Assembly (NCBI GenBank): GCA_902614085.1 | Contig: CACMJS010000003.1 | Location: 7,928 to 71,927 of the forward strand | DNA: 64,000 bases | Direction of reading: 5' to 3' | Origin: an uncultured Alphaproteobacteria bacterium | GTDB lineage: Bacteria > Pseudomonadota > Alphaproteobacteria > HIMB59 > GCA-002718135 | Shown: piece by piece, positions 2,392 to 34,589 of the stretch | Numbering within the stretch: the first letter of the stretch is position 1 | Layout of the letters: each line of letters begins with the position of its first letter | Position numbers and translations under genes: made by a program | The notes under the pieces: model-generated | What the model saw: the letters and a program-made list of their open reading frames with translations, nothing else | Database searches by the model: none | Told to the model about the DNA's origin: nothing

Positions 2392-3009
2392 ATGAAACCT
2401 AAATATTGGAATAAAGGTAAGATTTTTCTATCAAATAAAGATAAAGTTTTGAAGAAATTAATTCAAACTTATAGGAATGAATATTTAAATCTAAATTCTA
2501 ATTATTTTCATTCATTAATTAATTCAATAATTGGTCAACAAATATCTGTATCTGCAGCTGATTCGATGAAAACTAAATTTTTTAAACTTAAAAGAAATAT
2601 AACACCACAAACTGTATCTAAATTACGTACTACAGATTTACGAAAATGTGGTCTATCAAGACAAAAAATTTTATATATAAGAAATATTTCTAATTTTTTT
2701 TTACAAAACAAGGAATTCATAAAAAATATTAATAAATCTTCTGAAGAAGAAATTTATAATAATTTAATTGAAATAAAAGGAGTAGGGAATTGGACTATTC
2801 ATATGTTTTTAATGTTTAGTTATGGAAGTTCAAATATTTTTCCAACAGGTGATTTAGGGTTTTTAAAAGCTATTTCAAAACTTTATAAAGTTCAACTTCC
2901 TATAAGTGAAAGAAAACTTAAATTGCTTTATAAAAAATGGAGTCCATATAGTTCACAAGCCACATGGTATTTATGGAGATCATTGGACCCCATTCCAGTT
3001 AATTATTGA
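2392..3009 (+). CDS. alkA: DNA-3-methyladenine glycosylase II (HhH-GPD family)
   Basis: SIIGQQISVSAA, helix-hairpin-helix IKGVGNWT, FPTGDLG with catalytic Asp, WSPYSS. Confidence 0.85.
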   Translation: MKPKYWNKGKIFLSNKDKVLKKLIQTYRNEYLNLNSNYFHSLINSIIGQQISVSAADSMKTKFFKLKRNITPQTVSKLRTTDLRKCGLSRQKILYIRNISNFFLQNKEFIKNINKSSEEEIYNNLIEIKGVGNWTIHMFLMFSYGSSNIFPTGDLGFLKAISKLYKVQLPISERKLKLLYKKWSPYSSQATWYLWRSLDPIPVNY

Positions 3010-4441: not shown

Positions 4442-4442
4442 T

Positions 4443-4910
4443 TTAATATCTTATTTTATTTTCTTCTTTTTCCCAAATATTAAATGCTTTTATTGCCTCA
4501 TCACGTGATATTTGACTGATAGGAATTTTTCTCTCTTTCATTTCTACTGATAGTTCATCATAAATAAACTTGTCATCAAATTTAATTTTTGCAGCATCTT
4601 CTCTAGAATTACCATAATATACTTTGTCTATATGTGACCAATATATCGCACTCAAGCACATAGGACATGGTTCGCAACTGGAATACAATTCACAACCTTC
4701 TAAGTTAAAGGTATTTAATTTTTGACATGCATTTCTAATGGCAACAATTTCAGCGTGAGCAGTAGGATCATTATTAAATGTTACTCTATTTACTCCTTCT
4801 GCAATAATTTCATTTTCTTTTACAATAACACATCCAAAAGGACCTCCATTATTTTTGATATTATCAATTGACAATAAAATAGCTCTTTTCATAAAATCTA
4901 TATTTGTCAT
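4443..4910 (-). CDS. guaD: Guanine deaminase, cytidine-deaminase fold (B. subtilis GuaD type)
   Basis: GGPFG, DPTAHAE, CEPCPMC zinc motifs, C-terminal Tyr; lies in the purine operon. Confidence 0.88.
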   Translation of the reverse strand: MTNIDFMKRAILLSIDNIKNNGGPFGCVIVKENEIIAEGVNRVTFNNDPTAHAEIVAIRNACQKLNTFNLEGCELYSSCEPCPMCLSAIYWSHIDKVYYGNSREDAAKIKFDDKFIYDELSVEMKERKIPISQISRDEAIKAFNIWEKEENKIRY

Positions 4911-5737
4911 ATAACTTCTTTAATTTTATTATTTGATAAATGTTTTAAGCTATTTTTTATTGATATTATTCTTGTAATTATTGAGAAAGCTATTTCATTT
5001 GGATCTTTTGAATTACCAATATCAATTCCAATCGGACACTCAATTTTCTCAACTATAGATTTATTGTGACCATTATCAATTAATCTTTTATGAAACCTTT
5101 TTTTCTTTGTAAGAGATCCAATTAAACCAACAAAAGTATTATTTTTTTTCAAAATTTCATTTAATATTTTTAAGTCATAATCATGACTGTGAGTTAAGAC
5201 TATAAAATAAGAATTATCTTCTAGTTTTGATACAATCTCCCAAGGTTTTTTCGAAAGTAAATAATTTACATCTTTGATATTTGTCATTTTTAAATAATCT
5301 TCTCTTGAATCAATTATAAAAGTATTAAAATTAATATTTTCTAATTTAGAAATTAACGCTTGACCAATATGTCCTGATCCAAAGATATATAAGTTAGGTT
5401 TAATATTATTAACAACATATTCATTTTTTAGTGCATCTTTGGAATTATTATGTAAGCTTAATTTAACTTGTACGTATCCACCACAACATTGTCCAATTCC
5501 TGGCCCAAGCGGAATATTCATTACTTTATTTGCTATATTATTATCAATTAATCTTTTTGCTTCATCGATAACTAAATACTCTAAGTTTCCGCCACCGATA
5601 GTTCCAAAGATAGTACCAGTTGAGATTAATATAATATCGTCTAAACTATTGGGCGATGATCCTTTAACTTCAATAATTTTAGCCTTAACTATTTTACTAT
5701 TAAAATTTATATTTTTACTTAATTTTTTAAGATACAT
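4907..5737 (-). CDS. xdhC: Xanthine dehydrogenase accessory protein XdhC
   Basis: GTIGGGNLE, LGPGIGQCCGG, FGSGHIG, THSHDYD, GLIGS, CPIG; directly follows xdhB. Confidence 0.93.
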   Translation of the reverse strand: MYLKKLSKNINFNSKIVKAKIIEVKGSSPNSLDDIILISTGTIFGTIGGGNLEYLVIDEAKRLIDNNIANKVMNIPLGPGIGQCCGGYVQVKLSLHNNSKDALKNEYVVNNIKPNLYIFGSGHIGQALISKLENINFNTFIIDSREDYLKMTNIKDVNYLLSKKPWEIVSKLEDNSYFIVLTHSHDYDLKILNEILKKNNTFVGLIGSLTKKKRFHKRLIDNGHNKSIVEKIECPIGIDIGNSKDPNEIAFSIITRIISIKNSLKHLSNNKIKEVI

Positions 5738-5738
5738 T

Positions 5739-8012
5739 TTAATGCAAACTTTTTAATATATTTTCAGCAGTAGCAGGTGCAATTAAATTTTCAGAATTTT
5801 TTCCTTTATTGGCATTATATACTGCGTCCTTTAATGCAATAAAACTTGAAATTGCTAGCATAAATGGTGGCTCTCCAACAGCTTTAGAGCGATTAATAAC
5901 CTTTTCTTTATTAAAACCATGATCATAAATTTCGACATTAAATTTAAATGGTGTCTCACCTGCAGTTGGTATTTTGTAAGTAGAAGGACTATGAGTTGCT
6001 AGAACTCCATTTGATTTCCAAGACACTTCTTCAGTTGTGAGCCAACCTAATCCTTGAATATAGCCACCCTCAATTTGTCCTTTATCAATTCTCTTATTTA
6101 TAGAATTGCCAACATCATGAATTATATCAACTTGAAGTATTTTATTTTCACCAGTTAATTTATCAATAATTACTTCTGTTACTGCTGCTCCATAAGTAAA
6201 ATACAAGAACGGCCTTCCTTGAAGTGTTTTTGTATTTACATTAATTTTGTCAGTTTTATAAAAACCTGAAGATGACAATGGAATTCTATTCAAGTAAGCA
6301 GTATTTATCAATTCTTTAAAAGATATTTTTCTTTTATCAAAATAAACAAAATTATTTTCATATTTTATTTTGCTATTTGTTTTAAAATAATCATAGATAA
6401 ATTCATTTAAACCTGATTTGATATTATTTATAGCATTAACAATTGCTGCTCCATTTATATCAGTTGTAGCTGATGCTGCACTTGCTGATGTGTTAGGCAC
6501 TTTTTCTGTATCCGTTGAAGAGATTTTTATATTTTCGTAATAAAGGCCAAATTCATTAGAAGCCACTAAAGCAAGTTTCGTCATTAATCCTTGACCCATT
6601 TCAATTCCTCCATGATTTAAATGAATGGATCCATCAGTGTAGATATGAACTAAGGCACCACCTTGGTTTAAATGAGTAGTTGTAAATGATATTCCAAACT
6701 TTACAGGCGTTATTGCTATTCCTTTTTTTAGAACTTTATTTTTTTTATTAAAATTATTAATTTCTGCTCTTCTTTTTTTGTAATTAGATTTCTTAATTAG
6801 TTTATTAAAAATATCTTCAATCACATTGTCAGTAATTCTCATTCCATAATGAGTAGTATTTTTAATTTTATCTTTATAAAAATTAATTTTTCTTATTTCA
6901 CTTGCTTCTCTATTTAATTTTTGAGCAATGTTTTCAATTATATTTTCAATACAAAACATTCCTTGAGGCCCACCAAATCCACGAAAAGCTGTATTAGAAA
7001 CAGTATTTGTTTTACATCTATACGAATTAATTTCTATATTTGGTAAGAAGTAGGCATTATCTATATGATAGATGGCTCTATCATTTATAGCTCCTGATAA
7101 ATCCGGAGAGATACCGCATCTCGATGCCATCATTATTTTTAGAGCAAGTATTTCACCACTATTATTAAAACCCACTTCATAATCAAATAAAAAATCATGT
7201 CTTTTTCCAGTCATGATCATATCATCATCTCTATCGACTCTTAACTTTACTGGTTTAGATAACTTTTTTGCAGCAATGCTTGTAATGGCTGCAAACAAAA
7301 AAGATTGTGTTTCTTTTCCTCCAAAACCACCACCAATTCTTCTTACTATAACATGGATACTATTGTAATTTTGTTTAAGAACTTTACCGATAATTTGCTG
7401 TGTTTCTGATGGATGTTGTGTTGAAGAATAAACTAAAAAATTATTATCTTCTTGTGGAATAGTCATTGCAATTTGACCTTCTAAGTAAAAATGATCTTGA
7501 CCTCCTGAATACAATTTACCTTTTAGAATGTTGTTAGATTTTTTAAACCCATATTTTATATTTCCTCTAGTTAGATGCTTCGGTTTTAAAACAAATGATT
7601 TTTTCTTTAATGCTTCTTCAATTGAAACAATCGGTTTAGATATTTTTAAGTCTATTTTTACTTTTAATGCAGCTTTTTTTGCTAAATTATTGGTCTTTGC
7701 TATAACTGCAAAAATTGGTTGTCCATAATATTCTATATTTTTTGAAGTAAATATTTTATCTCCCTTAAATATTGGCCCAACATCATTTATACCTTCAATG
7801 TCTTTTTCAGTAATAATGTCTACTACACCTTCTGAAGATAAAACATCTTTATAATCAATTTTTTTTATTACTCCTTTACTGCAATTACTGTATCCAATTA
7901 CTGCGTGAAGTAAATTTTTAGGCTCTGATATATCATCAGTATAAATTGCTTTTCCAGTAACATGTTTTACTGCACTTTCATGTTCAATATTTTTTGTAAA
8001 TATTTTATCCAT
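5739..8012 (-). CDS. xdhB: Xanthine dehydrogenase molybdopterin-binding subunit
   Basis: GGQDHFYLEGQ, GGGFGGKETQS, AFRGFGGPQG, HGGIEMGQG, GQIEGG, SKAVGEPP. Confidence 0.96.
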   Translation of the reverse strand: MDKIFTKNIEHESAVKHVTGKAIYTDDISEPKNLLHAVIGYSNCSKGVIKKIDYKDVLSSEGVVDIITEKDIEGINDVGPIFKGDKIFTSKNIEYYGQPIFAVIAKTNNLAKKAALKVKIDLKISKPIVSIEEALKKKSFVLKPKHLTRGNIKYGFKKSNNILKGKLYSGGQDHFYLEGQIAMTIPQEDNNFLVYSSTQHPSETQQIIGKVLKQNYNSIHVIVRRIGGGFGGKETQSFLFAAITSIAAKKLSKPVKLRVDRDDDMIMTGKRHDFLFDYEVGFNNSGEILALKIMMASRCGISPDLSGAINDRAIYHIDNAYFLPNIEINSYRCKTNTVSNTAFRGFGGPQGMFCIENIIENIAQKLNREASEIRKINFYKDKIKNTTHYGMRITDNVIEDIFNKLIKKSNYKKRRAEINNFNKKNKVLKKGIAITPVKFGISFTTTHLNQGGALVHIYTDGSIHLNHGGIEMGQGLMTKLALVASNEFGLYYENIKISSTDTEKVPNTSASAASATTDINGAAIVNAINNIKSGLNEFIYDYFKTNSKIKYENNFVYFDKRKISFKELINTAYLNRIPLSSSGFYKTDKINVNTKTLQGRPFLYFTYGAAVTEVIIDKLTGENKILQVDIIHDVGNSINKRIDKGQIEGGYIQGLGWLTTEEVSWKSNGVLATHSPSTYKIPTAGETPFKFNVEIYDHGFNKEKVINRSKAVGEPPFMLAISSFIALKDAVYNANKGKNSENLIAPATAENILKSLH

Positions 8013-9427
8013 TAATATAACGTTGATTTAATTTTATTATTTTCATATAAAAACCTCTCTAAAAGGTTTTGACTAATTTTAGTTCTATAATTTTTTGACG
8101 CTCTCATATCATCTATTGGATCAAATTCTTTTTTAATAATTTTCTTTGCTTCATTAATATTTTCTTCATTAAATATTTTATTCAATAAAAATTTTTGTGC
8201 TTTTTTAGCTATTTTTGGAGTTTCTGCTAAACCTCCACAAACAATTTTTATTTCTTTAATAATATTTTTTTCAATCCTAGCATTTATAGCCATGAAAACA
8301 GAACTTATGTCATCATCTATTCTTTTTGAAATTTTATAACATTTAAGAATATTTTTTTTATAAATGGGTATTATAATTTCTTTAATTATTTCATTATGTT
8401 TTAATTTAGTTTTTCGATAGCTGAGAAAATAATTATCCAATAATAAAGTTTTTTTAACTTTTCCTTGAATTACAATTTTACTATTGAGTGCAATTAACAC
8501 AGGCAAACTATCACCTATTGGAGATGCGCTTCCAATGTTACCTCCAAGAGATGCAGTATTTCTTATTTGCTCAGATCCGTATCTTTCAAACATTTTCGCA
8601 AATGTTGGATAAATATTTTCTAAAATTGGTAAAATATCATTTATGGGGGTAGCGGATCCAATGTGTAAATTATTGTTTTTATTTTTAACATAATTTAAAT
8701 CTTTATTTGATCCTAAATAAAAAATATTTTTTAAATCTTTTCTTTTTTTTGTTACTTCAAGTGCAAGATCTGTACCCCCGACTAGTAAATGTCCATTACT
8801 AATCTTTTGATAGTCTTTTATTAGAGAATTTAAATTATAATGGATGAAAAACTTAGAATCATTTTTTTTAATAACAATATCAGTTTTCTTAATTGATTTT
8901 AATAATCTAATAACTTTACTTTTTGAAAATTTATTACTTTTATAGCTATACATATTCTTAATTGCATTTTTAATTGGAAGATAACCTGTACATCTACATA
9001 AATTTCCAGAAAGAAATTTATCTATATTCTCTTCTGTTGGTTTTATTTTGTTTTTGTACATATTATACATAGACATAATAATACCAGGTGTACAAAAACC
9101 ACATTGAGATCCATCACTATCAATCATTGATTGTTGAACAGGATGGAGTTTATTTTTTTGTATATGCTCAACTGTAATTAATTGCTTGCCATGTAGAGAG
9201 TACAAAAAAGTAATACAAGTATTTATACTTTTATAAGAAATTTTATTCTCTTTTAATTCTCCTACAACTGCAGTACATGCTCCACAATCACCAGATGCGC
9301 AACCTTCTTTTGTTCCAGTTAACTCATGATTGTTTCGAAGATAATTCAAGACCGTTATATTTGTGTCTAAATCTTTGATAGAGATTTTTTCTTCATTAAG
9401 AAGAAAATCGACATGCGCTCTAGACAC
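8012..9427 (-). CDS. xdhA: Xanthine dehydrogenase small (2Fe-2S/FAD) subunit
   Basis: GTKEGCASGDCGACT, SQCGFCTPG, GNLCRCTGY, GGNIGSASPIGD, KISKRIDDDIS. Confidence 0.96.
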   Translation of the reverse strand: MSRAHVDFLLNEEKISIKDLDTNITVLNYLRNNHELTGTKEGCASGDCGACTAVVGELKENKISYKSINTCITFLYSLHGKQLITVEHIQKNKLHPVQQSMIDSDGSQCGFCTPGIIMSMYNMYKNKIKPTEENIDKFLSGNLCRCTGYLPIKNAIKNMYSYKSNKFSKSKVIRLLKSIKKTDIVIKKNDSKFFIHYNLNSLIKDYQKISNGHLLVGGTDLALEVTKKRKDLKNIFYLGSNKDLNYVKNKNNNLHIGSATPINDILPILENIYPTFAKMFERYGSEQIRNTASLGGNIGSASPIGDSLPVLIALNSKIVIQGKVKKTLLLDNYFLSYRKTKLKHNEIIKEIIIPIYKKNILKCYKISKRIDDDISSVFMAINARIEKNIIKEIKIVCGGLAETPKIAKKAQKFLLNKIFNEENINEAKKIIKKEFDPIDDMRASKNYRTKISQNLLERFLYENNKIKSTLY

Positions 9428-9780
9428 TAGCTTCCTCTATATGTTGAATAACTCCACGGGGTAATAAGAAGAGGTACATGGTAGTGCTCTTCTTTGTTAA
9501 TTCCAAATCTAATTATTACGTCATCAAGAAAGAATGGTTCATGAAGATTTGTAAATTCCTTAAAATAACTCCCGCAAAGAAATAATAACTCATATTTTCC
9601 AAGTATAAAATTCTCTTTACTTAATATAGGCTCATCACATCTGCCATCTTCATTGAGAATAAAATTTGAAATTTTAACTTTATTTTCACCATCAATTTTG
9701 AAAAGTGACCCTTTTATACCAGAACCAGGCTTACCATTATAGGTATCCAAAACATGAGTAGTTAAATATCCTTTAGACAT
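9427..9780 (-). CDS. uraH: 5-hydroxyisourate hydrolase
   Basis: LTTHVLD, DGR, HYHVPLL and C-terminal YSTYRGS signature. Confidence 0.96.
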   Translation of the reverse strand: MSKGYLTTHVLDTYNGKPGSGIKGSLFKIDGENKVKISNFILNEDGRCDEPILSKENFILGKYELLFLCGSYFKEFTNLHEPFFLDDVIIRFGINKEEHYHVPLLITPWSYSTYRGS

Positions 9781-9801
9781 AATACTTATTCGTTTATACA
9801 G

Positions 9802-9815
9802 TATTTAGCTAAATA
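9802..9815. promoter_or_regulatory. Perfect 14-bp palindrome TATTTAGCTAAATA in the 52-bp divergent promoter of the purine operons
   Basis: Directly visible, centred between the uraH and puuE start codons. AT-rich, so it could be chance. Confidence 0.4.
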
Positions 9816-9832
9816 TTAAATCAAGCATTTTT

Positions 9833-10744
9833 ATGAAAGACGACAGAAATTATAAAGGCTACGGAAATAATGACTCTAACTTTTATTGGCCTAATAAATC
9901 AAAACTCGCTCTTCAATTTGTTCTAAATTATGAGGAAGGTGCTGAAAATTCAATAATAAATGGTGACGAAGGATCAGAAACTTTTTTATCGGAAATAATT
10001 AATGCAAAGCAAATAATAGGTGCCAGAAATATGAATATGGAATCAATATATGAGTATGGCTCAAGAAGGGGTTTTTGGAGAATACATAATGAGTTTGAAA
10101 AAAGAAAATTACCTTTAACAATATTTGGAGTTGGTATGGCTTTAGAAAAAAATCCTGATGTTTGTGAACAAATAATTAAATCAAAGTATGAAGTAGCTAG
10201 CCATGGTTATCGATGGATAGACTATCAAAATATAACTGAGGAAGTTGAAAAAGAACATACTATAAAATGTAACAACATTATTAAAGATATTTTTGGTTAT
10301 TTTCCGTCTGGTTGGTATACTGGTAGAACAAGCCCAAATACAAGAAATATAATTTTAGAAAATACAAAAATTATTTACGATAGTGACTCCTATGCTGATG
10401 ATTTACCCTACTGGATAAAAGTAAAAAATAAAAAACATCTAATTATTCCATACACTCTAGATAATAATGATATGAGATTCTCTACCTTACAAGGTTTTAA
10501 CACAGGTGAGGATTTTTATAATTACTTAAAAAACTCATTTGATACATTATACAGAGAAGCAAACGAGTTCAATAAACCAAAAATGATGAGTGTGGGTTTA
10601 CATTGTCGATTAATAGCCAGACCTGGAAGATTTATGTCTTTGGTAAAATTTTTGAATTATGTTTCTGGTTATGATGATATTTGGATATGCAAAAGAGAGG
10701 AAATTGCCAATTATTGGTATGAAAATTTTAGTGATGAAAATTGA
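9833..10744 (+). CDS. puuE: Allantoinase PuuE (polysaccharide deacetylase fold)
   Basis: FVLNYEEGAE, ESIYEYGSRRGFWRI, HGYRWIDY, GWYTGR, PYTLDNNDMRF, GLHCRLIARPGR. Confidence 0.95.
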   Translation: MKDDRNYKGYGNNDSNFYWPNKSKLALQFVLNYEEGAENSIINGDEGSETFLSEIINAKQIIGARNMNMESIYEYGSRRGFWRIHNEFEKRKLPLTIFGVGMALEKNPDVCEQIIKSKYEVASHGYRWIDYQNITEEVEKEHTIKCNNIIKDIFGYFPSGWYTGRTSPNTRNIILENTKIIYDSDSYADDLPYWIKVKNKKHLIIPYTLDNNDMRFSTLQGFNTGEDFYNYLKNSFDTLYREANEFNKPKMMSVGLHCRLIARPGRFMSLVKFLNYVSGYDDIWICKREEIANYWYENFSDEN

Positions 10745-11243
10745 AGATATTAATAATTATAACTCTGAAAAATTTATTGATTCTTTTGAAAATATTTTTG
10801 AAGAATCTAAATTTATAACAGAATATGCTGATAAAAAGCGACCATTTAAAAATAAAAAAGAAATGATATTAATATTTTTAGAGTTGTTTGATAATTTAGA
10901 TGCAGAAACTAAAATAAATATAATTAAAAAACATCCTGATCTAGCTGATAAAATAAAAATAAATAAAGGTTTGTCTGAATTATCTGATGAAGAACAAAGT
11001 AGATCTGGTTTAAAAGATTGTTCAGAACAAGAATTTAACTTATTTAAACATTTAAATTCAAGATTTAAAAATAAATTTAATATTCCATTTATTTTTGCAG
11101 TTAGAAATAAAAATAAAAATGAAATTATAACAGAGTTTAAAAGTAGATTAGAGAATAATGATTTAAACTTAGAAATAAAAACTTCAATTTCACAAGTAAA
11201 AGAAATTGCAAAATTAAGATTAACAGAATTAATTAATGAATAA
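10734..11243 (+). CDS. uraD: OHCU decarboxylase
   Basis: ENIFEES, HPDLA, SDEEQSRSGL, KFNIPFIFAVR. Likely start is ATG 10734 (the track extends the ORF to 10659). Confidence 0.9.
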   Translation: MKIEDINNYNSEKFIDSFENIFEESKFITEYADKKRPFKNKKEMILIFLELFDNLDAETKINIIKKHPDLADKIKINKGLSELSDEEQSRSGLKDCSEQEFNLFKHLNSRFKNKFNIPFIFAVRNKNKNEIITEFKSRLENNDLNLEIKTSISQVKEIAKLRLTELINE

Positions 11244-12213
11244 AAAATACATTCAAAAAAATTATATAAACTTATGTAGTAAGGTTTTAGGTTCAAAAAT
11301 TCATAGATTTTCTGATCAGTTTTTTGGATCAGCATCCAGATTGCTTAAAGAGGAAAAGCCAATTTTTAAAGAAGGAGTATACGATAAAAATGGGAAATGG
11401 ATGGATGGATGGGAAACAAGAAGAAAAAGAATTGAAGGAAATGATTATGTTACTATTAAATTAGGCCTTCCTGGTAAAATTAATTTTGCTGAAATAGACA
11501 CAAGTTATTTTAATGGCAATCAACCTGAATACGCAAGCATTGATGCTTGTTATTTTGAAAAAAATAAATTTAATTGGGTAAATATTTTATCAAAAAGGAA
11601 ACTTAATCCAAATTATGTTCATGGTTTTAAAACTCAACAGAATAATAAAGTTTTTAACTTCATAAGATTGAACATCTATCCAGATGGAGGAGTTGCAAGA
11701 TTAAAATTATTAGGAAATTTAGATGTATCAAAATTAAAATTTCCAAATAAAAAATTTGATTTACTGAGCATCCTTAATGGTTCAAAAATTGTGGCATGTA
11801 GTGATGAACATTTTGGACGGGCAGAAAATTTATTACTTCCATTTAAATCTAAAAATATGGGTAATGGCTGGGAAACTAAAAGAAGAAGAGGATCAGGATA
11901 TGACTGGGTTATAATTAAACTTGGCAAACCTGGTTTAATTGAAAAGTTTAATATTGAAACTCATTATTTTAAAGGTAATTATCCATCTCATTGCTCAGTA
12001 CAAGGTATTTATTCAATAAAAAATATAAATATAAGCAAATTAATAAGTGAAAGCAAAAATTGGAAATTTTTGATAAAAAATAAAAATCTTAAACCTAATT
12101 CATCATTAAAAATTAATTCAACTAAACAGATTAAAAAAATAAATTATTTGAAGTTAAATATTTATCCTGACGGTGGTATTTCACGGATCAGGGCAATTGG
12201 AAAGTTTTTGTGA
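11236..12213 (+). CDS. alc: Allantoicase
   Basis: Two repeated domains, each with D/NGWETxRxR and NIYPDGG; DTSYFNGN / ETHYFKGN. Confidence 0.95.
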   Translation: MNKKYIQKNYINLCSKVLGSKIHRFSDQFFGSASRLLKEEKPIFKEGVYDKNGKWMDGWETRRKRIEGNDYVTIKLGLPGKINFAEIDTSYFNGNQPEYASIDACYFEKNKFNWVNILSKRKLNPNYVHGFKTQQNNKVFNFIRLNIYPDGGVARLKLLGNLDVSKLKFPNKKFDLLSILNGSKIVACSDEHFGRAENLLLPFKSKNMGNGWETKRRRGSGYDWVIIKLGKPGLIEKFNIETHYFKGNYPSHCSVQGIYSIKNINISKLISESKNWKFLIKNKNLKPNSSLKINSTKQIKKINYLKLNIYPDGGISRIRAIGKFL

Positions 12214-12704
12214 TATATAAAATAAAGAATATTAGTAAAGAGAATTTCAAAAATTACGGTGATTTAATTACAACATCTAATAAAAATTATGAAAGTATTA
12301 ATAAAGATACAACCGAAAGTTTTTTTGATTTAGCAAATATTCAAATAATTGGTGATGACAAAAGATCTAGATTAAATATTTTTCAGGCAAAGAAAAGAAA
12401 CTTTCCATTAAAAATTAACATGTTAGAAAATCATCCTTTTAGTTCTCAAGTATTTCTTCCTTTTAATGCTACAGGTTTTTTAGTTTTAGTTGCTCCAATA
12501 GGTAACAAACCTAAAATTGATTTAATTGAAATATTCAAAGTAAGCGGTGGTGATGGTATAAATTTTAATCCCAAAGTATGGCATTTTCCTCTAATATCTC
12601 TTGAGAATGAAAAATATATTACCATTGATAAAAAAGATGCGGATAATAATATTGAGATTTATAATTTTGAACAATCAGAAATATTTGAATTAAATTATGA
12701 GTGA
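12210..12704 (+). CDS. allA: Ureidoglycolate lyase
   Basis: YGDLI, MLENHPFSSQVFLP, GINFNPKVWHFPL. Confidence 0.9.
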   Translation: MIYKIKNISKENFKNYGDLITTSNKNYESINKDTTESFFDLANIQIIGDDKRSRLNIFQAKKRNFPLKINMLENHPFSSQVFLPFNATGFLVLVAPIGNKPKIDLIEIFKVSGGDGINFNPKVWHFPLISLENEKYITIDKKDADNNIEIYNFEQSEIFELNYE

Positions 12705-14202
12705 TACAATATTAAATATAGAAAATATTACAAAATCTTTTCCAAGAGTAATTGCAAATAAAAAGGTTACTTTTGATATTAAAAAAAATGCAGTTCATGC
12801 AATTTTAGGAGAAAATGGAGCAGGGAAATCAACGTTGGTAAAAATTCTATATGGTCTCTTAGAACCAGATGAAGGAAATATTATATTAAATAATAAGGAT
12901 TTTAAAGTTAATTCCCCAGCAGAAGCAAGGAAACAAGGAATAGGAATGGTATTTCAGCATTTTTCTTTATTTGATTCTTTATCAGTAAAAGAAAATTTAA
13001 TTTTAGGAATTGATGAAAAGATGTCTTATTCAGATTTAGAAAATAAGCTAGAAAACATAAGCTCAAGATATAATCTTCCCTTAGATTTAGATGCTCCAAT
13101 TACTGCTTTATCAGCTGGAGAAAAGCAGCGTGTAGAAATTGTAAGAATTTTATTACAAGACCCTCAGATACTTATTATGGATGAGCCAACTTCAGTCTTA
13201 ACACCACAAGAAGTTGAAAGTTTATTTGTAACATTAAATGCACTTGTCAAAGAAGGTCGTACAATATTATATATCACTCATAAACTCGAAGAAGTAATAT
13301 CAATATGTGATACAGTTACTATAATGAGAAGTGGTGAAATTATAGATACTTCAAGTACTGCAAATCAAACTGCAAAAACACTTGCAACAAAAATGCTAGG
13401 ACAAAAATTAGATGACTTAAAAACTAATTATGGACATATAAAAGACGAAGTTAACTTTGAAGTAAAAAATATTTCATGTGACTTTAATGATCCATTTTTA
13501 ACAGATCTTAAAAATATTTCTTTTCAAGTTAGAGTGGGTGAAATTTATGGCATTGCTGGAGTTGCTGGTAATGGACAATCAGAATTAATGGATATTTTAA
13601 CAGGAGAAAATATAAATATTAAATCTGGATCAATTACTTTTGATAATAAAAAAATTGAAAAGTATGGGCCACAAAAAAGAAGAGATTTATCTATTTCTTT
13701 TGTTCCGGAGAATAGATTGGGTCATAGTGCGGTACCTGAGTTAAGTTTGTCTGAAAATATTCTTTTGAGTCAATTTCCAAAAAATAATTTTATTAGAAAT
13801 GGCATAATATTAAAAAATAACGTTGATGATTTTGCGAATAATGTAATTAATGAATTTAAAGTTATTACTCCTGGTAATGATGCTAAAGCATCAAGCTTGT
13901 CCGGAGGAAATTTACAAAAATATGTCATTGGTAGAGAAATATCATCTAAGCCAAAAATATTAATTATTTCACATCCAACTTGGGGGATAGATGCTGGTGC
14001 TGAGCATTCTATAAGAGAGTCTTTGATAGAATTATCTCAAAATGGAACTTCTATAATTGTTATTTCTCAAGATCTAGATGAATTGATTGAAATTACTCAT
14101 AAAATATCTGTTATTTATGATGGTAATTTATCCAAACCTTTTAAAACTAGTGAAATAGAAATAGAAAAATTAGGATTATTGATGGGTGGAAAAAATGAAT
14201 AG
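12697..14202 (+). CDS. ABC transporter ATP-binding protein, double-domain CUT2 (nucleoside/purine) type
   Basis: Walker A GENGAGKS, LSAGEKQ, MDEPTSVLTP, second half GVAGNGQSEL and LSGGNLQK. Confidence 0.93.
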   Translation: MSDTILNIENITKSFPRVIANKKVTFDIKKNAVHAILGENGAGKSTLVKILYGLLEPDEGNIILNNKDFKVNSPAEARKQGIGMVFQHFSLFDSLSVKENLILGIDEKMSYSDLENKLENISSRYNLPLDLDAPITALSAGEKQRVEIVRILLQDPQILIMDEPTSVLTPQEVESLFVTLNALVKEGRTILYITHKLEEVISICDTVTIMRSGEIIDTSSTANQTAKTLATKMLGQKLDDLKTNYGHIKDEVNFEVKNISCDFNDPFLTDLKNISFQVRVGEIYGIAGVAGNGQSELMDILTGENINIKSGSITFDNKKIEKYGPQKRRDLSISFVPENRLGHSAVPELSLSENILLSQFPKNNFIRNGIILKNNVDDFANNVINEFKVITPGNDAKASSLSGGNLQKYVIGREISSKPKILIISHPTWGIDAGAEHSIRESLIELSQNGTSIIVISQDLDELIEITHKISVIYDGNLSKPFKTSEIEIEKLGLLMGGKNE

Positions 14203-15268
14203 TTTATTTCCATCTATAGTTTCTCGCTCACAGAGTTCGGGTTTAATGAATTTTTTTGTTCCTATAATATCAATAGTTTTAACTTTAATTACAGGTTCAA
14301 TTATTTTTGTTCTTCTTGGTTTTGATCCAGTTTATGCATTGTATACATTTTTTATTTCACCCATTTCTTCAACCTACGGTATTTCTGAATTGTTTGTAAA
14401 AGCAACACCTTTAGCCTTAATTGCAATTGGTCTCTCATATTGTTTTAAGAATAATATTTATAATATTGGAGCCGAAGGACAACTTACCATGGGTGCAATT
14501 TTTGGTGGAGGTATTGGAATATTATTTCATGATACAAATGCTTTCTGGTTGTTGCCATTAATGATTTTCGCAGGAGCAATCGGAGGAGCATTGTGGGGTT
14601 TAATACCTGCTATTTTAAAAACAAAATTTAATACAAATGAAATTTTAACAAGTTTAATGTTAGTTTATGTTGCTTTATTTATTTTAGATTATTTAGTAGT
14701 TGGACCTTGGAAAGATCCATTTGGTTATAGTTTTCCTAAATCAAGACCATTTAGTGAATCTGGAAGAATGCCTCTATTATTTGATGGTTTGAGGGTGCAC
14801 TTTGGATTAATTATAACGCTATTTTTAATTTTTATATCTTGGTTTATATTTGCAAAAACTATTTTTGGCTTTCAATTAAAAGTATCCGGTTACAGCCCCA
14901 AAGCTGCTAGATATGCTGGTTTTAATCAAACAACTTTAGTTTTTTTTGCTTTTGCAATTTGTGGTGCTTTTGCAGGTATTGCAGGTTTAGCTGAAGTATC
15001 TGGCCCAATTGGATTATTATATAGAGATATTTCTCCAAATTATGGATTTACTGCAATTATTGTTGCTTTTTTAGGTAGACTTCACCCAATTGGTATTATT
15101 TTTGCTTCTTTAGTTATAGCTCTTACTTATCTTGGCGCTGAAGATGCACAATTGTTTTTACAAATACCTTCAGCGGTAGGTTTTATATTTCAGGGTTTGG
15201 TTTTATTTTATTTATTAGGTGCGGAATTACTAATTAACTATAAATTAACTTACAAAAAATTATTATGA
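14186..15268 (+). CDS. Nucleoside/purine ABC transporter permease 1
   Basis: NIGAEGQL, NEILTSLML, GFTAIIVAFLGRLHP. Start may be ATG 14195. Confidence 0.92.
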   Translation: MEKMNSLFPSIVSRSQSSGLMNFFVPIISIVLTLITGSIIFVLLGFDPVYALYTFFISPISSTYGISELFVKATPLALIAIGLSYCFKNNIYNIGAEGQLTMGAIFGGGIGILFHDTNAFWLLPLMIFAGAIGGALWGLIPAILKTKFNTNEILTSLMLVYVALFILDYLVVGPWKDPFGYSFPKSRPFSESGRMPLLFDGLRVHFGLIITLFLIFISWFIFAKTIFGFQLKVSGYSPKAARYAGFNQTTLVFFAFAICGAFAGIAGLAEVSGPIGLLYRDISPNYGFTAIIVAFLGRLHPIGIIFASLVIALTYLGAEDAQLFLQIPSAVGFIFQGLVLFYLLGAELLINYKLTYKKLL

Positions 15269-16134
15269 ATTTAGATTTAATACTTGGAATATTACAAATT
15301 GTTTTAATTGCAACAACACCTCTAGTTTTTGCTGGTATAGGTGAATTAGTTACAGAAAAATCTGGAGTATTAAATTTAGGTGTAGAAGGAATGATGTTGG
15401 TAGGAGCAGTGTCAGCTTTTATTATCTTAGTAATTACCGGAAGTTATTTTTTAGCTTTTTTTCTATCTATATTATCTGGAATTATTATGTCTGGTTTATT
15501 TGCTTTTCTAGTTCTATTTTTAATGTCAAATCAAATTGCTACAGGATTAGCATTAACTATTTTTGGAATAGGACTTAGTTCAATGCTTGGCAAACAATAT
15601 ATTGGAACACCAATTGATGGTCTTTCACCATGGTTTTTTGTTATATTTTCTTTCTTAATTGTTTTTTTGGTTAGTTACTTTTTTTACAAAACTAAAGCTG
15701 GTTTGATTTTAAGAGCAGTAGGGGAATCTCATAATTCTGCACATGCATTAGGATATAGCGTTATTAAAATTAGATTTTTATCAATTATATTTGGAGGTTC
15801 TATGTGTGCTCTTGCAGGATCATATATTTCAATTTGTTATGCTCCAATGTGGCAAGAGGGTATGACAGCTGGACGAGGATGGATAGCATTAGCTTTAGTT
15901 GTATTTGCAACCTGGAAACCAGAAAGAGTACTTATTGGAGCTTATATATTTGGAGGTGTAACTATTCTTCAAATGAATCTTCAGGCTTTAGGTTTAAGAT
16001 TCCCTGGTCAATTTTTTAGCATGGCGCCATATGTTGCAACTATTATAGTATTAGTGTTAATTTCTAGTAATAAATTAAGGATAAAACTTAGCGCACCAGC
16101 TTCGTTAACTATTCCTTTTTATAAAGGTAGATAA
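15265..16134 (+). CDS. Nucleoside/purine ABC transporter permease 2
   Basis: EKSGVLNLGVEGMML, LRAVGE, AGRGWIALALVVFATWKP, APYVAT. Confidence 0.92.
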   Translation: MNLDLILGILQIVLIATTPLVFAGIGELVTEKSGVLNLGVEGMMLVGAVSAFIILVITGSYFLAFFLSILSGIIMSGLFAFLVLFLMSNQIATGLALTIFGIGLSSMLGKQYIGTPIDGLSPWFFVIFSFLIVFLVSYFFYKTKAGLILRAVGESHNSAHALGYSVIKIRFLSIIFGGSMCALAGSYISICYAPMWQEGMTAGRGWIALALVVFATWKPERVLIGAYIFGGVTILQMNLQALGLRFPGQFFSMAPYVATIIVLVLISSNKLRIKLSAPASLTIPFYKGR

Positions 16135-16227
16135 ATATCCACTTTTTTTTTTCTATAATCATATAGAATTATTGATCAAACCCTTTTGTATATATTAAGT
16201 ATATAGCTGAGTAATCGTTATATTAGC

Positions 16228-16236
16228 AGGTGAGGT
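16228..16236 (+). promoter_or_regulatory. Strong Shine-Dalgarno sequence (AGGTGAGGT) of the substrate-binding protein gene
   Basis: Ends 4 nt upstream of ATG 16241; one of few clear SD sites in the window. Confidence 0.65.
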
Positions 16237-16240
16237 TAAA

Positions 16241-17308
16241 ATGATTAGAATAATAACTTTTTTATCTACTTTTTTGGTATTTGCATTTGGTTCAGCATAT
16301 GCAGACCCTAAAAAAGTTGGATTTATATACATAGGTCCTCCAGGTGATCATGGTTGGACATATATGCATGATGTAGGTAGAAAATATATGGAGAGCCAAC
16401 TTGGTGACTCTATTACTACTACTTATCTTGAAAATATTCCTGAAAACGCAGATGCAGTGAGAGCAATCCGAAAACTAGCAGACTCAGGACATGATTTAAT
16501 ATTTACAACTTCTTTCAACTATATGGATCAGACACATGAAGTAGCTAAGGATTTTCCTGATATAAAATTTGAACACGCTACTGGGTATATCCAAGCAGAT
16601 AACGTTGCAACGTATTCAGCTAGATTTTACGAAGGCAGAATGATTGAAGGGCATATTGCCGGTCATATGACTGAAACTAATACTATTGGTTATATAGCTT
16701 CATTCCCTATCCCTGAAGTTGTAAGAGGAATTAATGCATTTTATTTAGCGGCTTCAAAAGTAAATCCAGATATCAAAATGAAAATTATTTGGGTATTTAC
16801 TTGGTACGACCCAGGTAAAGAAGCTGATGCAGCTAATACATTAATTAATCAAGGAGCTGACATAATTGTTCAGCATACTGATACATATGCTCCTTGCCAA
16901 GCTGCTCAAAAAGCGGGTGTTTATGCATTTGGTCAAGCTTCAAACCAAGAAGAATTTTGTCCTGATGCACATTTAACTTCAATTGAAGATATTTGGGGCC
17001 CTTACTATGCTGAAAGAGCAAAAGCTGTTGTGGACGGCACTTGGTCTTCTGGTGATACTTGGGATGGTATGGATAAAGGTATGGTTGTAATGTCACCATA
17101 TAATACTAAACTTATGCCAGCAAGTTTAATTCAAGAAGCAGTAAATATGGAAGTTGGAATTAAAGATGGAACTATTCATCCTTTCACGGGTCCAATTTAC
17201 AATCAAGCTGGTGAGCTTGTGGTTCCTGAAGGTGAAGTAGCGCCTGATGGAATGTTACTTGGAATGAACTTTTATGTTCAAGGTATTGACGGCGAAGTAC
17301 CACAATAA
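16241..17308 (+). CDS. BMP family ABC transporter substrate-binding protein (purine/nucleoside)
   Basis: Signal peptide, VGFIYIGPPGDHGWT, IGYIASFPIPEVVRGINAF, WYDPGKE, ADIIVQHTD. Confidence 0.93.
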   Translation: MIRIITFLSTFLVFAFGSAYADPKKVGFIYIGPPGDHGWTYMHDVGRKYMESQLGDSITTTYLENIPENADAVRAIRKLADSGHDLIFTTSFNYMDQTHEVAKDFPDIKFEHATGYIQADNVATYSARFYEGRMIEGHIAGHMTETNTIGYIASFPIPEVVRGINAFYLAASKVNPDIKMKIIWVFTWYDPGKEADAANTLINQGADIIVQHTDTYAPCQAAQKAGVYAFGQASNQEEFCPDAHLTSIEDIWGPYYAERAKAVVDGTWSSGDTWDGMDKGMVVMSPYNTKLMPASLIQEAVNMEVGIKDGTIHPFTGPIYNQAGELVVPEGEVAPDGMLLGMNFYVQGIDGEVPQ

Positions 17309-17352: not shown

Positions 17353-17375
17353 TTCTTAATTTCAAAGGAAGATTT

Positions 17376-30761: not shown

Positions 30762-30995
30762 ATGATCCGATTGTTAATAGTTTTAATTGTTATAGTAATT
30801 ATACTATTTATTTTGAGATCAAGAGCCAAATCACAATATAATAATTATGGTAACTTTTATAGAAATTTAATTCTGATAGTCATAATTGGAGGTATAATCT
30901 TCTTCCTTGCAACAACTGGAAAATTCTTGATACCACAGTTATTAAATCTTATTAAAGTTGGTTTACCATTCTTGACAAAATTAATAGGAATATAA
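30762..30995 (+). CDS. Small hypothetical membrane protein (77 aa)
   Basis: Two TM helices; stop overlaps the next start (TAATG). Confidence 0.7.
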   Translation: MIRLLIVLIVIVIILFILRSRAKSQYNNYGNFYRNLILIVIIGGIIFFLATTGKFLIPQLLNLIKVGLPFLTKLIGI

Positions 30996-31858
30996 TGAAA
31001 TATTTTTCAACAAACGATCTACCCTTAAACGATGAAATGATTAAGTTTTGGAATGATAATGGATATTTGGTTATAGAAAATTTCAATACAGATAAAGAAT
31101 GTAATGAATTAATGGAACGGTCATCATATCTTATCGAACATAATAATTTTAATAATCAAAAATCTATTTTTGATACAGTCAATCAAGCTCATAATGATGA
31201 TAATTATTTTTTAGAATCAGGAGATAAAATTCGTTTCTTCTTTGAAGAAAAAGCTAATTTAAATGATGATAACATAGAAGAAAATAAACATTTTATTGTA
31301 AATAAAATCGGTCATGCGTTGCACGACTTAGATAAAGTTTTTTATAAATTTTCTCATAAACAAAAACTTCAAGATATTGCTTTATCACTTGGTTTCTCAA
31401 AACCAAAATTACTTCAGTCTATGTATATTTTTAAACAACCTAAAATAGGCGGTGAAGTAGTTTGCCATCAAGATTCTACTTTTTTATATACTGAGCCAGA
31501 AAGTACTATCGGTTTCTGGTTTGCATTAGAAGATGCAAATAAAACAAACGGATGTTTACAAGTTGCAAGCGGAGGTCATAAAGGCCCATTAAGAAAACTT
31601 TTTAAAAAAGTAGACGGTAAAATGCAAATGATAGATCTAAATGATGAGCCATTTCCTGAAACTGATACTTTTGTAGAAGTAAAAAAAGGATCACTTGTTT
31701 TATTACATGGTAGACTTCCTCATTATTCATGTGAGAACACAAGTATAAAATCAAGACATGCTTACACAATTCATGTAATTGATAATAACAACGAATATCC
31801 TGAATGGAATTGGTTACAAAGATCTTCAATACCTCTTAAAAGTTTTATTAATGACTAA
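30995..31858 (+). CDS. PhyH-family Fe(II)/2-oxoglutarate dioxygenase, PHYHD1-like
   Basis: NKIGHALHD, QSMYIFKQPKIGGEV, HQD iron motif, WFALEDA, NGCL, distal H in LPHYS, SR. Confidence 0.9.
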   Translation: MKYFSTNDLPLNDEMIKFWNDNGYLVIENFNTDKECNELMERSSYLIEHNNFNNQKSIFDTVNQAHNDDNYFLESGDKIRFFFEEKANLNDDNIEENKHFIVNKIGHALHDLDKVFYKFSHKQKLQDIALSLGFSKPKLLQSMYIFKQPKIGGEVVCHQDSTFLYTEPESTIGFWFALEDANKTNGCLQVASGGHKGPLRKLFKKVDGKMQMIDLNDEPFPETDTFVEVKKGSLVLLHGRLPHYSCENTSIKSRHAYTIHVIDNNNEYPEWNWLQRSSIPLKSFIND

Positions 31859-32795
31859 AAAAATAATTTTAGATTGTGATCCAGGTCATGATGATGCTGT
31901 AGCAATAATGTTAGCTGCTTCCTCTAAAGAGATTGACATACTGGGTATCACCTGTGTCGGTGGAAATAGTGGTTTAAATAATACAGTAAATAACGCTCTT
32001 AAAGTTTGTACCCTAATTGAAAGAACGGACATTAAAGTTTACTCTGGTGCAAATAAACCTATTCATTATGAATTATTTACAGCTGAATATGTTCACGGAA
32101 AAACCGGATTAGATAAAAAAGGTGATCCTATAATAATAGATACAAATTATAAACCTCAAGAAAAACATGCAGTTGATTTCATAGTAGAAACTTGTAAATC
32201 TTCAACAGAGCAAATTTATTTATGTCCAACAGGACCTCTTACAAATATTGCCTTAAGTTTAAAAAAAGATCCATCTATTAAAGAAAATATAAAAGAAATA
32301 GTTTTTATGGGTGGAGCTGCTATGTGCTTAGGAAATACTACACCATCAGCTGAATTTAATATTTATGTGGATCCACATGCGGCTAATATTGTTTTAGAGT
32401 CAGGCATTCCTTTAACAATGATGGGTTTAGATGTTACTCATCAGGTAAATGTAAATTCAAAAATTATCAAATCAATTAATGAAAATAAAAATAAAAGTTC
32501 TAAGTTTTTTGGGGAACTAATGGAATTTTATACAATATTTCATAAAGAATTATACGAAACTGAGGAAACTCCTTTGCATGACCCATGTGTTATTGCATAT
32601 TTATTAGATCCATCTATTTTTAGTGGAAAAGAAGTTAATGTCACAGTTGAAGAAAATTCTGAATTAACAAGAGGGGAGACTGTTGTTGATTGGCTAGGTG
32701 TTACTAAAAGACCAGTAAATTGTTTTGTGATGAATGAAGCTAATGATGAAAAATTTTTTAAATTACTTAAAGCTAAATTATTGTTATTACCTTAA
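31851..32795 (+). CDS. Inosine/uridine-preferring nucleoside hydrolase
   Basis: ILDCDPGHDDA (Ca-binding Asp cluster), VHGKTGL, TGPLTN, AEFNIYVDPHAA, GLDVT, LHDP. Likely start is ATG 31851. Confidence 0.94.
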   Translation: MTKKIILDCDPGHDDAVAIMLAASSKEIDILGITCVGGNSGLNNTVNNALKVCTLIERTDIKVYSGANKPIHYELFTAEYVHGKTGLDKKGDPIIIDTNYKPQEKHAVDFIVETCKSSTEQIYLCPTGPLTNIALSLKKDPSIKENIKEIVFMGGAAMCLGNTTPSAEFNIYVDPHAANIVLESGIPLTMMGLDVTHQVNVNSKIIKSINENKNKSSKFFGELMEFYTIFHKELYETEETPLHDPCVIAYLLDPSIFSGKEVNVTVEENSELTRGETVVDWLGVTKRPVNCFVMNEANDEKFFKLLKAKLLLLP

Positions 32796-33700
32796 CTATA
32801 AAAACCCTTTGCAATCTTTCCAGCTAAATTCGCATTATTAATTATTAAAGATACATTAGCATTTAGAGTTTCATTTTTTGATTGTTCGTTAATTTCTTTT
32901 ATGAGAAATGGGGTTAATTCTTTTCCACTAATATTATTTCTATCAGCTTTTATTGTTGCCTTATTTATCCATTTTTCTACGTCATTTTTATTAAGTGCTT
33001 TTTCTAATGGAACTTTATTAAATATAAGAATTGATTTTTTATTTCCCATATTTTCATTGAGTTTTAAAAAAGAAGAAATTTGATGAATTTCATCAAATTT
33101 ATTATCGACTTTATTTTCTGTTTCTTCATACCAAAAACCAGGTATATAATTTGTTTGATAACCAATTCTTGTAATTCCTAAAGTTTCAAGAAGTTCATTT
33201 GTTTTACTTAAATCTAATATAGATTTAGCACCACTACAGATTACATAATTTGAATTCTCAGAAAGTGCATATAGATCTGCAGATACATCATTGGTATTTT
33301 CAGCATTTAGATGCACACCGCCAATTCCTCCTGTTGCAAAAAATCTTATTTGAAATTTAGAAGCTATAGAAATTGTACTTGCTACTGTTGTAGCAGCATT
33401 TTCTTTATTAAATATTGATAAATTTATATTGTGGTTTGAAACTTTTTGTACATTTTTCTCTTTTGCTAATATTTGAATATCTTCTTCCGATAATCCTATT
33501 TTAACCTTACCTTTAATTATTCCTATTGTTGCAGCAATTGCACCGTTATCTTCAACAGCCTTTATAGACTCATTTGCAACTTTAATATTTTCTGGATAGG
33601 GCAATCCATGACTAATCAATGTACTTTCTAAAGCTACTATTGGTTTTTTTCTATTTATTGCTTCTTGAACTTTTTTACTTATATCAAATATTTCATGCAT
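32792..33700 (-). CDS. psuG: Pseudouridine-5'-phosphate glycosidase
   Basis: VALESTLISHGLPYPEN, ATTVAST, FATGGIGGVH, DVSADL, SGAKSILD, GKELTPFL. ATG at 33700 (track uses TTG 33712). Confidence 0.95.
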   Translation of the reverse strand: MHEIFDISKKVQEAINRKKPIVALESTLISHGLPYPENIKVANESIKAVEDNGAIAATIGIIKGKVKIGLSEEDIQILAKEKNVQKVSNHNINLSIFNKENAATTVASTISIASKFQIRFFATGGIGGVHLNAENTNDVSADLYALSENSNYVICSGAKSILDLSKTNELLETLGITRIGYQTNYIPGFWYEETENKVDNKFDEIHQISSFLKLNENMGNKKSILIFNKVPLEKALNKNDVEKWINKATIKADRNNISGKELTPFLIKEINEQSKNETLNANVSLIINNANLAGKIAKGFYS

Positions 33701-33701
33701 A

Positions 33702-34589
33702 CTATTGTACAATCACTCTCTTAGAAAGATTTTTAATTTTTAAAAAATCACTCTTAGTTTTTAGACTTTTACCACTAGCATAATAAGACCCGCATGCTAC
33801 AGAAGTTTTCAAAATATAATTCATTTTTTCATTAATACTGAACAAATACAGCATCATAGCTGCTAGTGCGTCTCCAGCTCCATTTTCGTTTACTACTTTG
33901 ATTGATGGGGGTTTTATTTTTTTTATAAATTCATTACTTCCAAAGATTACATTATTTTTTGAATTAGTAGTAATTATTTTTATTTTTTTATTTTGTTTTA
34001 ATATTTTTTTTACACCTAATATTATATTTGAAGAATTTGTAAGTTTAAGTAACTCTGCTTTATTTAAGAATATAAAATCAACTTTATTTATAATCCTTTT
34101 AATTTTAATAACTTTATGCACTGATGTTGCGCACACTATAATTTTATTTTTTTTTGATAGTTTATTTATTGATTTTTCCAAATAGGTTTTAGAAAAATTT
34201 AGATCAAATATTATATTTTTATTCTTGATGTTTGGTATTTTTAAAGATTTATTATTTTCATATTCATCTGTGTTAGCTAATCCTAATAAAAATTTATTAT
34301 TTTTATCTGATAAAGCTAAATAGTATCTATCTGCATAATCTTTATTCACTTGATGAACATAGATTTTTTTTGAGATTTTTTTTCTAATCTCTTCATTGAT
34401 AGCTAAACTATAAAATTTTACATCAACAAAATTCGAAAGCAATTCTGCAATATTGTATGCCACTCCACCAATTCTGCTTTTTTGTGTAATTTGATTAGAT
34501 CTAAAATTAATAATATTTTTTTTAAGATTTAATAAATAATCGTGATGAATTGCCCCAATACAAACGAAAATGTTTTTAGATTTCAGCAT
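33702..34589 (-). CDS. psuK: PfkB-family kinase, probable pseudouridine kinase (divergent)
   Basis: IGA..D, GGVAYNIA, LNKAEL, NENGAGDAL anion-hole motif; coupled to psuG. Confidence 0.72.
   Translation of the reverse strand: MLKSKNIFVCIGAIHHDYLLNLKKNIINFRSNQITQKSRIGGVAYNIAELLSNFVDVKFYSLAINEEIRKKISKKIYVHQVNKDYADRYYLALSDKNNKFLLGLANTDEYENNKSLKIPNIKNKNIIFDLNFSKTYLEKSINKLSKKNKIIVCATSVHKVIKIKRIINKVDFIFLNKAELLKLTNSSNIILGVKKILKQNKKIKIITTNSKNNVIFGSNEFIKKIKPPSIKVVNENGAGDALAAMMLYLFSINEKMNYILKTSVACGSYYASGKSLKTKSDFLKIKNLSKRVIVQ

Follow-up and report, generated by a model that had tools for sequence, protein, structure and literature searches.

The PHYHD1 and FJS dioxygenases strip free Cm, Um, Am and Gm of their 2'-O-methyl group in a 2-oxoglutarate-dependent reaction that releases formaldehyde, and do not accept nucleotides, 3'-O-methyl nucleosides or RNA; human PHYH is inactive on 2'-O-methyl nucleosides (Stonkus et al., NAR 2025, PMC12709175). 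FJS is a soil metagenomic dioxygenase from an insert of ~1.2 kb, active PHYHD1s come from human, mouse, zebrafish, fly, a fungus, two plants and a giant virus, and the bacterial enzymes tested, from Acidisoma, Poribacteria and Sphingomonas, are all FJS-like (PMC12709175). Nucleoside hydrolase (NH)-family enzymes offer another route: LbNH, AgNH and RK9NH, the latter of an RK9NH-DERA-like cluster, cleave 2'-O-methyl nucleosides directly, leaving the methyl on the ribose and needing no oxygenase. Escherichia coli K-12, in turn, groups rihB-nupX with psuT-psuG-psuK, making a nucleoside hydrolase beside pseudouridine genes a known theme. Here we describe a locus that brings elements of these systems together, at positions 30995-34589 of a 64,000-nucleotide stretch of marine alphaproteobacterial DNA from contig CACMJS010000003.1 (the window; G+C ~27%). 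It comprises four genes: a PHYHD1-type dioxygenase and a nucleoside hydrolase on the plus strand, followed by convergent psuG and psuK on the minus strand.

We consider this locus to be, probably, a small island for the breakdown of modified ribonucleosides in a marine alphaproteobacterium of the HIMB59/AEGEAN-169 type, a group formerly known as SAR11 subclade V. The enzyme family and each of the reactions are already known. The 2025 discovery of PHYHD1 activity left the bacterial physiological setting undescribed, and the study contains no gene-neighbourhood analysis (PMC12709175); in the searchable literature we found no operon-level coupling of PHYHD1 orthologues to nucleoside cleavage enzymes, including the marine version with a hydrolase. 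The neighbourhoods presented below are the first comparative-genomic evidence that we have found for a role of true bacterial PHYHD1 orthologues in nucleoside catabolism, and the locus offers a concrete two-step route of demethylation followed by cleavage.

The dioxygenase belongs with PHYHD1

The dioxygenase gene (30995..31858, plus strand) encodes a 287-aa protein that matches the whole of the PhyH profile (PF05721, positions 1-213 of 213; 136 bits, E 2.3e-39; Pfam). Its relationship within this family is with PHYHD1: it matches the sequence of the human PHYHD1 structure (PDB 2opw/3obz) at E 1.6e-53 and PHYH at 3e-09, and scores 186 bits against human PHYHD1, as against 35 for human PHYH and 31 for FJS. 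Relative to sequences taken from the supplement of PMC12709175, which were machine-read and yield approximate identities, it is 41% identical to human PHYHD1 and 39-45% identical to six active enzymes, the PHYHD1s of Arabidopsis, human, zebrafish, fly, a fungus and Fadolivirus; identity is 23% to PHYH and ~25% to the FJS, Acidisoma and Poribacteria enzymes, confined for these three to the C-terminal half. The original prediction for this locus had picked out the segments KIGHALH, QSMYIFKQP, GGEV, HQD and FLYTEP as a human PHYHD1 pattern and had drawn on a report of demethylation of 2'-O-methylated nucleosides by such enzymes; all five segments are present and align to human PHYHD1, and the report, that of Stonkus et al., describes this activity.

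Residues expected to form the active site are conserved. The iron-binding triad H158/D160/H243 and the 2-oxoglutarate-binding arginine R254 align to human PHYHD1 and are invariant in 52 representatives of the clade, as are K104, H107 and W273, with Q141 nearly so. Docking of human PHYHD1 places K102, H105, Q139 and W277 on the ribose and stacks F161 on the base (PMC12709175); these correspond to K104, H107, Q141, W273 and F163 of the window enzyme. Every bacterial orthologue that we examined keeps this K/H/Q/F/W set, whereas enzymes of the FJS type lack the K, H, Q and W. One position differs from the human enzyme: Ser154, proposed to hydrogen-bond purines (PMC12709175), is replaced by Val at window position 156, as it also is in the active Arabidopsis enzyme.

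A neighbour-joining tree, built without bootstraps and rooted on PHYH, places the window enzyme in a bacterial PHYHD1-type clade, the sister group of the eukaryotic and viral PHYHD1s, with the FJS type outside both. Both flanking groups, PHYHD1 and FJS, are experimentally active, so the window clade is bracketed by demethylase activity, and we predict by homology that the window dioxygenase is a 2'-O-methyl-nucleoside demethylase. It shares with the eukaryotic and giant-virus PHYHD1s the PhyH fold, identity over nearly the full length, the triad, the 2-oxoglutarate arginine and the pocket residues, and differs from them in being bacterial, in belonging to the sister clade and in having its gene coupled to a nucleoside hydrolase. 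With FJS and the Acidisoma, Poribacteria and Sphingomonas enzymes it shares the Pfam family and, by prediction, their published reaction on free 2'-O-methyl nucleosides, but these form a separate clade. Many genomes label such genes “phytanoyl-CoA dioxygenase,” a label that could be corrected if the prediction is confirmed.

Among the representatives of the nearest clusters at 50% identity, we checked the longer homologues for informative fusions and found only P0166, a NUDIX-PhyH fusion of 466 aa, and P0121, a tandem PhyH protein of 600 aa.

The nucleoside hydrolase

The second gene of the plus-strand pair (31851..32795) encodes a 314-aa hydrolase of the IU-NH family (group I, RihA/RihB-like), apparently translationally coupled to the dioxygenase. 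It matches IU_nuc_hydro over its full length (349 bits, E 3.1e-104; Pfam), its top PDB matches are RihA (1e-75) and RihB (1e-68), and identity to E. coli RihB is 42%. The DCDPGHDD segment at residues 8-15 aligns to D9-D16 of RihB, the DxDxxxDD motif for Ca2+ and ribose, while PLHDP and VHGKTG align to the RihB segments PVHDA and IHGETG and supply the equivalents of His239-Asp240 and His82. The protein falls below every NCBIfam equivalog cutoff for RihA, RihB, RihC and UriH, with RihA the best (342.6 bits, cutoff 433), and it carries His at the position of RihB Gln227.

PsuG and the probable PsuK

Identification of PsuG, the pseudouridine-5'-phosphate glycosidase encoded at 32792..33712 on the minus strand, is secure by sequence criteria. 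The protein matches Indigoidine_A (334 bits, E 8.2e-100; Pfam) and the E. coli PsuG structure 4gij (E 5.7e-72), and shares with E. coli PsuG the motifs ALESTxISHG and GAKSILD. We take the lysine of the latter to be the catalytic lysine of the E. coli PsuG structure.

The adjacent gene (33702..34589, minus strand) encodes a PfkB-family kinase (58 bits, E 1.3e-15; Pfam) whose NGAGDA motif aligns with TGAGDA of E. coli PsuK. As a single sequence it matches E. coli PsuK at E 4e-5, retrieves no PsuK in a PDB search, and reaches no NCBIfam model above cutoff. A PDB search with a profile of the clade found E. coli pseudouridine kinase 7vkp as the best named match, over the full length, at 1.7e-12, with the unnamed kinase 2nwh ahead of it. 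The gene adjoins psuG on the same strand, as psuK does in E. coli, and mainly from this context and the clade profile we consider the kinase to be probably PsuK.

The E. coli neighbourhood rihB-nupX/yeiL/psuT-psuG-psuK is a close described parallel to this half of the locus. Both place a hydrolase of the IU-NH family, in E. coli one for pyrimidine nucleosides, beside psuK and psuG, which overlap in E. coli. The E. coli genes are, however, accompanied by NupC-type transporters and a regulator and include no dioxygenase, whereas the window cluster has the dioxygenase and neither a transporter nor a regulator.

Gene junctions and conservation within the HIMB59 clade

The junctions of the locus are tight. 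Reading of the DNA at 31851-31858 shows the end of the dioxygenase gene overlapping the beginning of the hydrolase gene by 8 nt, ATGACTAA; the mechanical list of open reading frames starts the hydrolase at TTG 31779, and the conserved start is ATG 31851, from which the protein begins MTKKIILDCDPGHDD. Where the two strands converge, at 32792-32795, the hydrolase stop TAA (32793-32795, plus strand) overlaps the psuG stop (32792-32794, minus strand). The start of psuG is ambiguous, with TTG 33712 giving an 11-nt overlap with psuK and the in-frame ATG 33700 giving none. The original prediction described both the 8-nt overlap and the overlapping convergent stops, and direct reading bears it out on each.

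Upstream, an open reading frame at 30762..30995 on the plus strand encodes a predicted two-helix membrane protein of 77 aa and ends on the first codon of the dioxygenase, the two overlapping in TAATG. It has no Pfam match, is called as a gene in relatives, is kept at 42-100% identity in 24 loci of the HIMB59 clade, and may open the dioxygenase-hydrolase transcription unit.

The locus proteins are 95-99% identical to those of single-cell genomes labelled “uncultured Alphaproteobacteria bacterium AG-911-C02” and others, and remoter relatives carry the labels HIMB59 and MarineAlpha5, which places the organism in the HIMB59/AEGEAN-169 group. All 24 related loci have the same order of small open reading frame, dioxygenase, hydrolase and convergent psuG and psuK; their dioxygenases are 64-99% identical to that of the window, and gene order is kept down to 64%. 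The 8-nt ATGNCTAA overlap persists in the 22 loci whose dioxygenase is 70-99% identical. The pair is thus not peculiar to this genome, as the original prediction had allowed it might be, and is conserved across the HIMB59/AEGEAN-169 clade. When linkage of the two genes is followed more widely the picture is mixed: it holds throughout this clade (24 loci) and appears in none of 62 loci from other species, to which we now turn.

PHYHD1-type genes join nucleoside genes in other bacteria

Using the motifs NKIGHALH and QSMYIFKQ, taken from an alignment of 11 sequences that share them, we surveyed GTDB at one genome for each species and inspected the best 80 of at least 597 matches. Outside the HIMB59 clade lay 62 of these 80 loci, with dioxygenases 45-53% identical to that of the window, and we searched them with examples of deoA, deoB, add, 5'-nucleotidase and psuK-psuG genes. 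A same-strand nucleoside-catabolic gene lay within 2.5 kb of the dioxygenase in 19 of the 62, from Kiloniellaceae, Pelagibius, Denitrobaculum, Dongia, Ferrovibrio, Asaia, Acidimicrobiales and Ca. Tethybacter; 18 of these have deoA, deoB, add or a 5'-nucleotidase there, and the remaining one has psuK-psuG. All 43 gene matches fell in the inner 2.5-kb zone, which makes up 29% of the sequence, and none in 717 kb of outer flanks, an enrichment whose nominal binomial p of 7e-24 is inflated by the non-independence of related lineages. The neighbouring thymidine phosphorylases, phosphopentomutases and adenosine deaminases score above curated NCBIfam cutoffs.

The arrangements differ from lineage to lineage. 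Denitrobaculum, Ferrovibrio, Dongia and several other Alphaproteobacteria have a thymidine/pyrimidine phosphorylase, phosphopentomutase and dioxygenase in succession, some with adenosine deaminase; Pelagibius and Kiloniellaceae have phosphorylase-dioxygenase-5'-nucleotidase; Acidimicrobiales have phosphorylase-adenosine deaminase-dioxygenase; and Ca. Tethybacter has dioxygenase, PfkB kinase and PsuG on one strand. Five operon-embedded examples, at L065 7369-11815, L049 7444-10858, L037 8484-12404, L027 7600-10837 and L071 2373-5318, illustrate the same-strand orders deoA-deoB-dioxygenase-add, deoA-dioxygenase-5'-nucleotidase, deoA-add-dioxygenase and dioxygenase-psuK-psuG. The change of partners between lineages points to repeated recruitment of the PHYHD1-type gene, and the recurrent nucleoside context lends independent support to a role of the orthologues in nucleoside catabolism. 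The deo operons in which they are embedded cleave by phosphorolysis, through thymidine/pyrimidine phosphorylase and phosphopentomutase, whereas the window has a hydrolase and no deo genes; the logic common to both would be to unblock the ribose and then cleave the glycosidic bond.

From these observations a broader reading can be drawn, which we put forward tentatively, thinking it possible and no better than that: PHYHD1-type dioxygenases would be a general, as yet unannotated component of bacterial nucleoside catabolism, recruited time and again beside the enzyme that each lineage employs on the glycosidic bond (in Rhodospirillales-type Alphaproteobacteria and in Acidimicrobiales phosphorylase/deoB/add, in Ca. 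Tethybacter psuKG, in HIMB59 the hydrolase), and the HIMB59 island would harvest RNA modifications from seawater. If this is true, the two eukaryotic RNA modifications that are most common in seawater supply HIMB59/AEGEAN-169 cells with carbon, nitrogen and ribose, and modified nucleosides are an unbudgeted pool of dissolved organic matter (DOM).

No universal partner gene emerged among the clustered and annotated neighbours of the 62 loci. In one set, from Acidobacteriota and from metagenome-assembled genomes labelled Heliomicrobium (L026, L043, L055-L057, L062, L063 and L069), a gene of the chromate-transporter family lies upstream and a DUF1572/DinB-like or GNAT gene downstream, an arrangement that the nucleoside model does not explain.

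Transcripts across the locus

Of the words sampled from the dioxygenase-hydrolase stretch, 42-67% occur in marine metatranscriptome assemblies. Three marine metatranscriptomes have contigs that bridge the dioxygenase/hydrolase junction; a single contig bridges psuG and psuK, and another links the membrane genes upstream to the dioxygenase (30273 to 31308). The junction-crossing contigs fit co-transcription of dioxygenase and hydrolase, with the reservation that metatranscriptome contigs and libraries can contain DNA. The psu pair, being convergent, is not co-transcribed with them. An Rfam scan of 30000-35000 revealed no riboswitch or other RNA, and a scan for promoters and terminators was uninformative in this DNA of 25% GC, promoter-like sites being fewer than in shuffled sequence.

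Proposed pathway and alternatives

We propose that in a first step, suggested by homology, the dioxygenase, with Fe(II), 2-oxoglutarate and O2, would hydroxylate a free nucleoside at its 2'-O-methyl group, and collapse of the product would yield the ribonucleoside, formaldehyde, succinate and CO2. In a second, to which gene coupling and family chemistry point, the IU-type hydrolase would cleave the unblocked nucleoside to base and ribose. IU-NH enzymes hold the 2'- and 3'-hydroxyls of ribose through Ca2+, and a 2'-O-methyl would normally block this, so that an upstream demethylase makes sense. Pseudouridine would be handled alongside by PsuK and PsuG, the glycosidase being well supported and the kinase resting on context and profile.

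Purine bases released by the hydrolase could feed the Xdh/urate/allantoate pathway encoded 15-28 kb away. The purine catabolic block (2999..12704) has Pfam matches for a PuuD-type urate oxidase, a CDA-fold deaminase, XdhC, XdhB, XdhA, a PuuE-like deacetylase, allantoicase and ureidoglycolate lyase. Next come a Bmp/PnrA-type ABC transporter on the plus strand (12697..17308; ABC_tran, two BPD_transp_2 and Bmp), comprising an ATPase, two permeases and a binding protein (16241..17308), and a phosphoribosyltransferase. Together these genes span 2999-17879, a complete-looking block that confirms the purine pathway earlier placed at 3-18 kb. The transporter may import nucleosides or purines. The main AEGEAN-169 genomics paper makes no mention of nucleoside, purine or phytanoyl genes.

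The original prediction took all four genes as a single locus for catabolism of modified nucleosides. Its gene identities stand, its order of demethylation and then hydrolysis is plausible and the core pathway is well backed by comparison between genomes, but the psu pair is convergent and shares no transcript with the other two genes; that the four act as one unit, and that the cell uses them to forage on DOM, is what we infer. If these roles are confirmed, 2'-O-methyl nucleosides and pseudouridine would join the substrates of an abundant and poorly known oligotrophic marine clade.

Several observations weigh against this scheme. The bacterial enzymes that have been assayed are of the FJS type and only ~25% identical to that of the window. 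The His at the RihB Gln227 position and the failed equivalog cutoffs leave the hydrolase with no assigned base preference, and similarity of the kinase to E. coli PsuK is weak (22% identity). Direct cleavage of 2'-O-methyl nucleosides by some members of the NH family means that a demethylase need not be present and that hydrolysis might come first; the window shares with these systems an NH-family enzyme in the context of 2'-O-methylated nucleosides and differs from them in having the dioxygenase. Conservation of the pairing in the HIMB59 clade is weak evidence of selection for it, since the wider neighbourhood, from an M20 amidohydrolase through to a gene for an APH-M23-aminotransferase fusion, is syntenic there as well. 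Beyond the clade, no nucleoside hydrolase lies within 10 kb of the dioxygenase in the 62 loci, and 43 of the 62 lack any nucleoside gene in the vicinity, with GNAT, chromate transporter, LexA and DUF1572 genes among those beside them. That the survey rests on the best 80 of at least 597 GTDB matches, and that metatranscriptome contigs can contain DNA, count on the same side.

One alternative is that the island clears or salvages modified nucleosides from turnover of the cell's own rRNA and tRNA instead of foraging on DOM. Such a role has a precedent in zebrafish, where loss of phyhd1 raises free endogenous 2'-O-methyl nucleosides (PMC12709175). It would also suit a four-gene cluster that has no transporter gene, the nearest candidate being 14 kb away, and no riboswitch or known regulatory RNA upstream; a full-text search returned no paper pairing pseudouridine with seawater or DOM terms, a search that did not extend to 2'-O-methyl nucleosides in seawater. 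Bacterial RNA has few 2'-O-methyls, however, and we would expect a flux so small that three or four genes in a streamlined genome become harder to explain, and the nearby purine genes, accompanied by an ABC importer, speak for foraging on nucleobases or nucleosides. We regard internal turnover as somewhat unlikely.

A further alternative is that dioxygenase-hydrolase and psuK-psuG are two unrelated units that happen to abut. Their convergence makes a shared transcript impossible, and the arrangement is conserved in one syntenic clade only. Association of the same functions recurs elsewhere, however, in the single-strand dioxygenase-psuK-psuG order of Ca. Tethybacter and in the placement of E. 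coli rihB beside psuTGK, and RNA-derived nucleosides would be the substrates of all four enzymes, as far as can be judged from sequence. Fortuitous abutment seems to us rather unlikely.

Finally, it is improbable that the dioxygenase has a different substrate (2-O-methylribose left by direct hydrolysis of the methylated nucleoside, some other modified nucleoside, or a small molecule unrelated to these), with its adjacency to the hydrolase a matter of lineage synteny: the size and many activities of PhyH (4020 library representatives at E up to 0.001), the direct cleavage seen in the NH family, and the 62 other loci, none with a hydrolase close by and 43 lacking nearby nucleoside genes, would allow it, but all tested members of the sister PHYHD1 and outgroup FJS clades demethylate, the predicted ribose and base contacts are all conserved, the overlap with the hydrolase start is kept, and orthologues join nucleoside operons repeatedly with differing partners.

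The psuK end of the locus

Contig joints (30367 to 33974) suggested a deletion variant, which we rejected, as the joints involve a T-rich, low-complexity stretch at 33960-34010 inside psuK. A 539x depth spike at ~33900-34060 in one metatranscriptome is likewise an assembly artefact of the T-rich stretch.

Beyond psuK, a plus-strand gene at 34570-37620 encodes the 1016-aa protein in which APH-type kinase and M23 peptidase domains are fused to a class-III aminotransferase; the protein matches NCBIfam PRK06148 at 1020 bits, slightly below cutoff. The start of this gene overlaps that of psuK head-to-head by 20 nt, and the gene adjoins psuK in all relatives.

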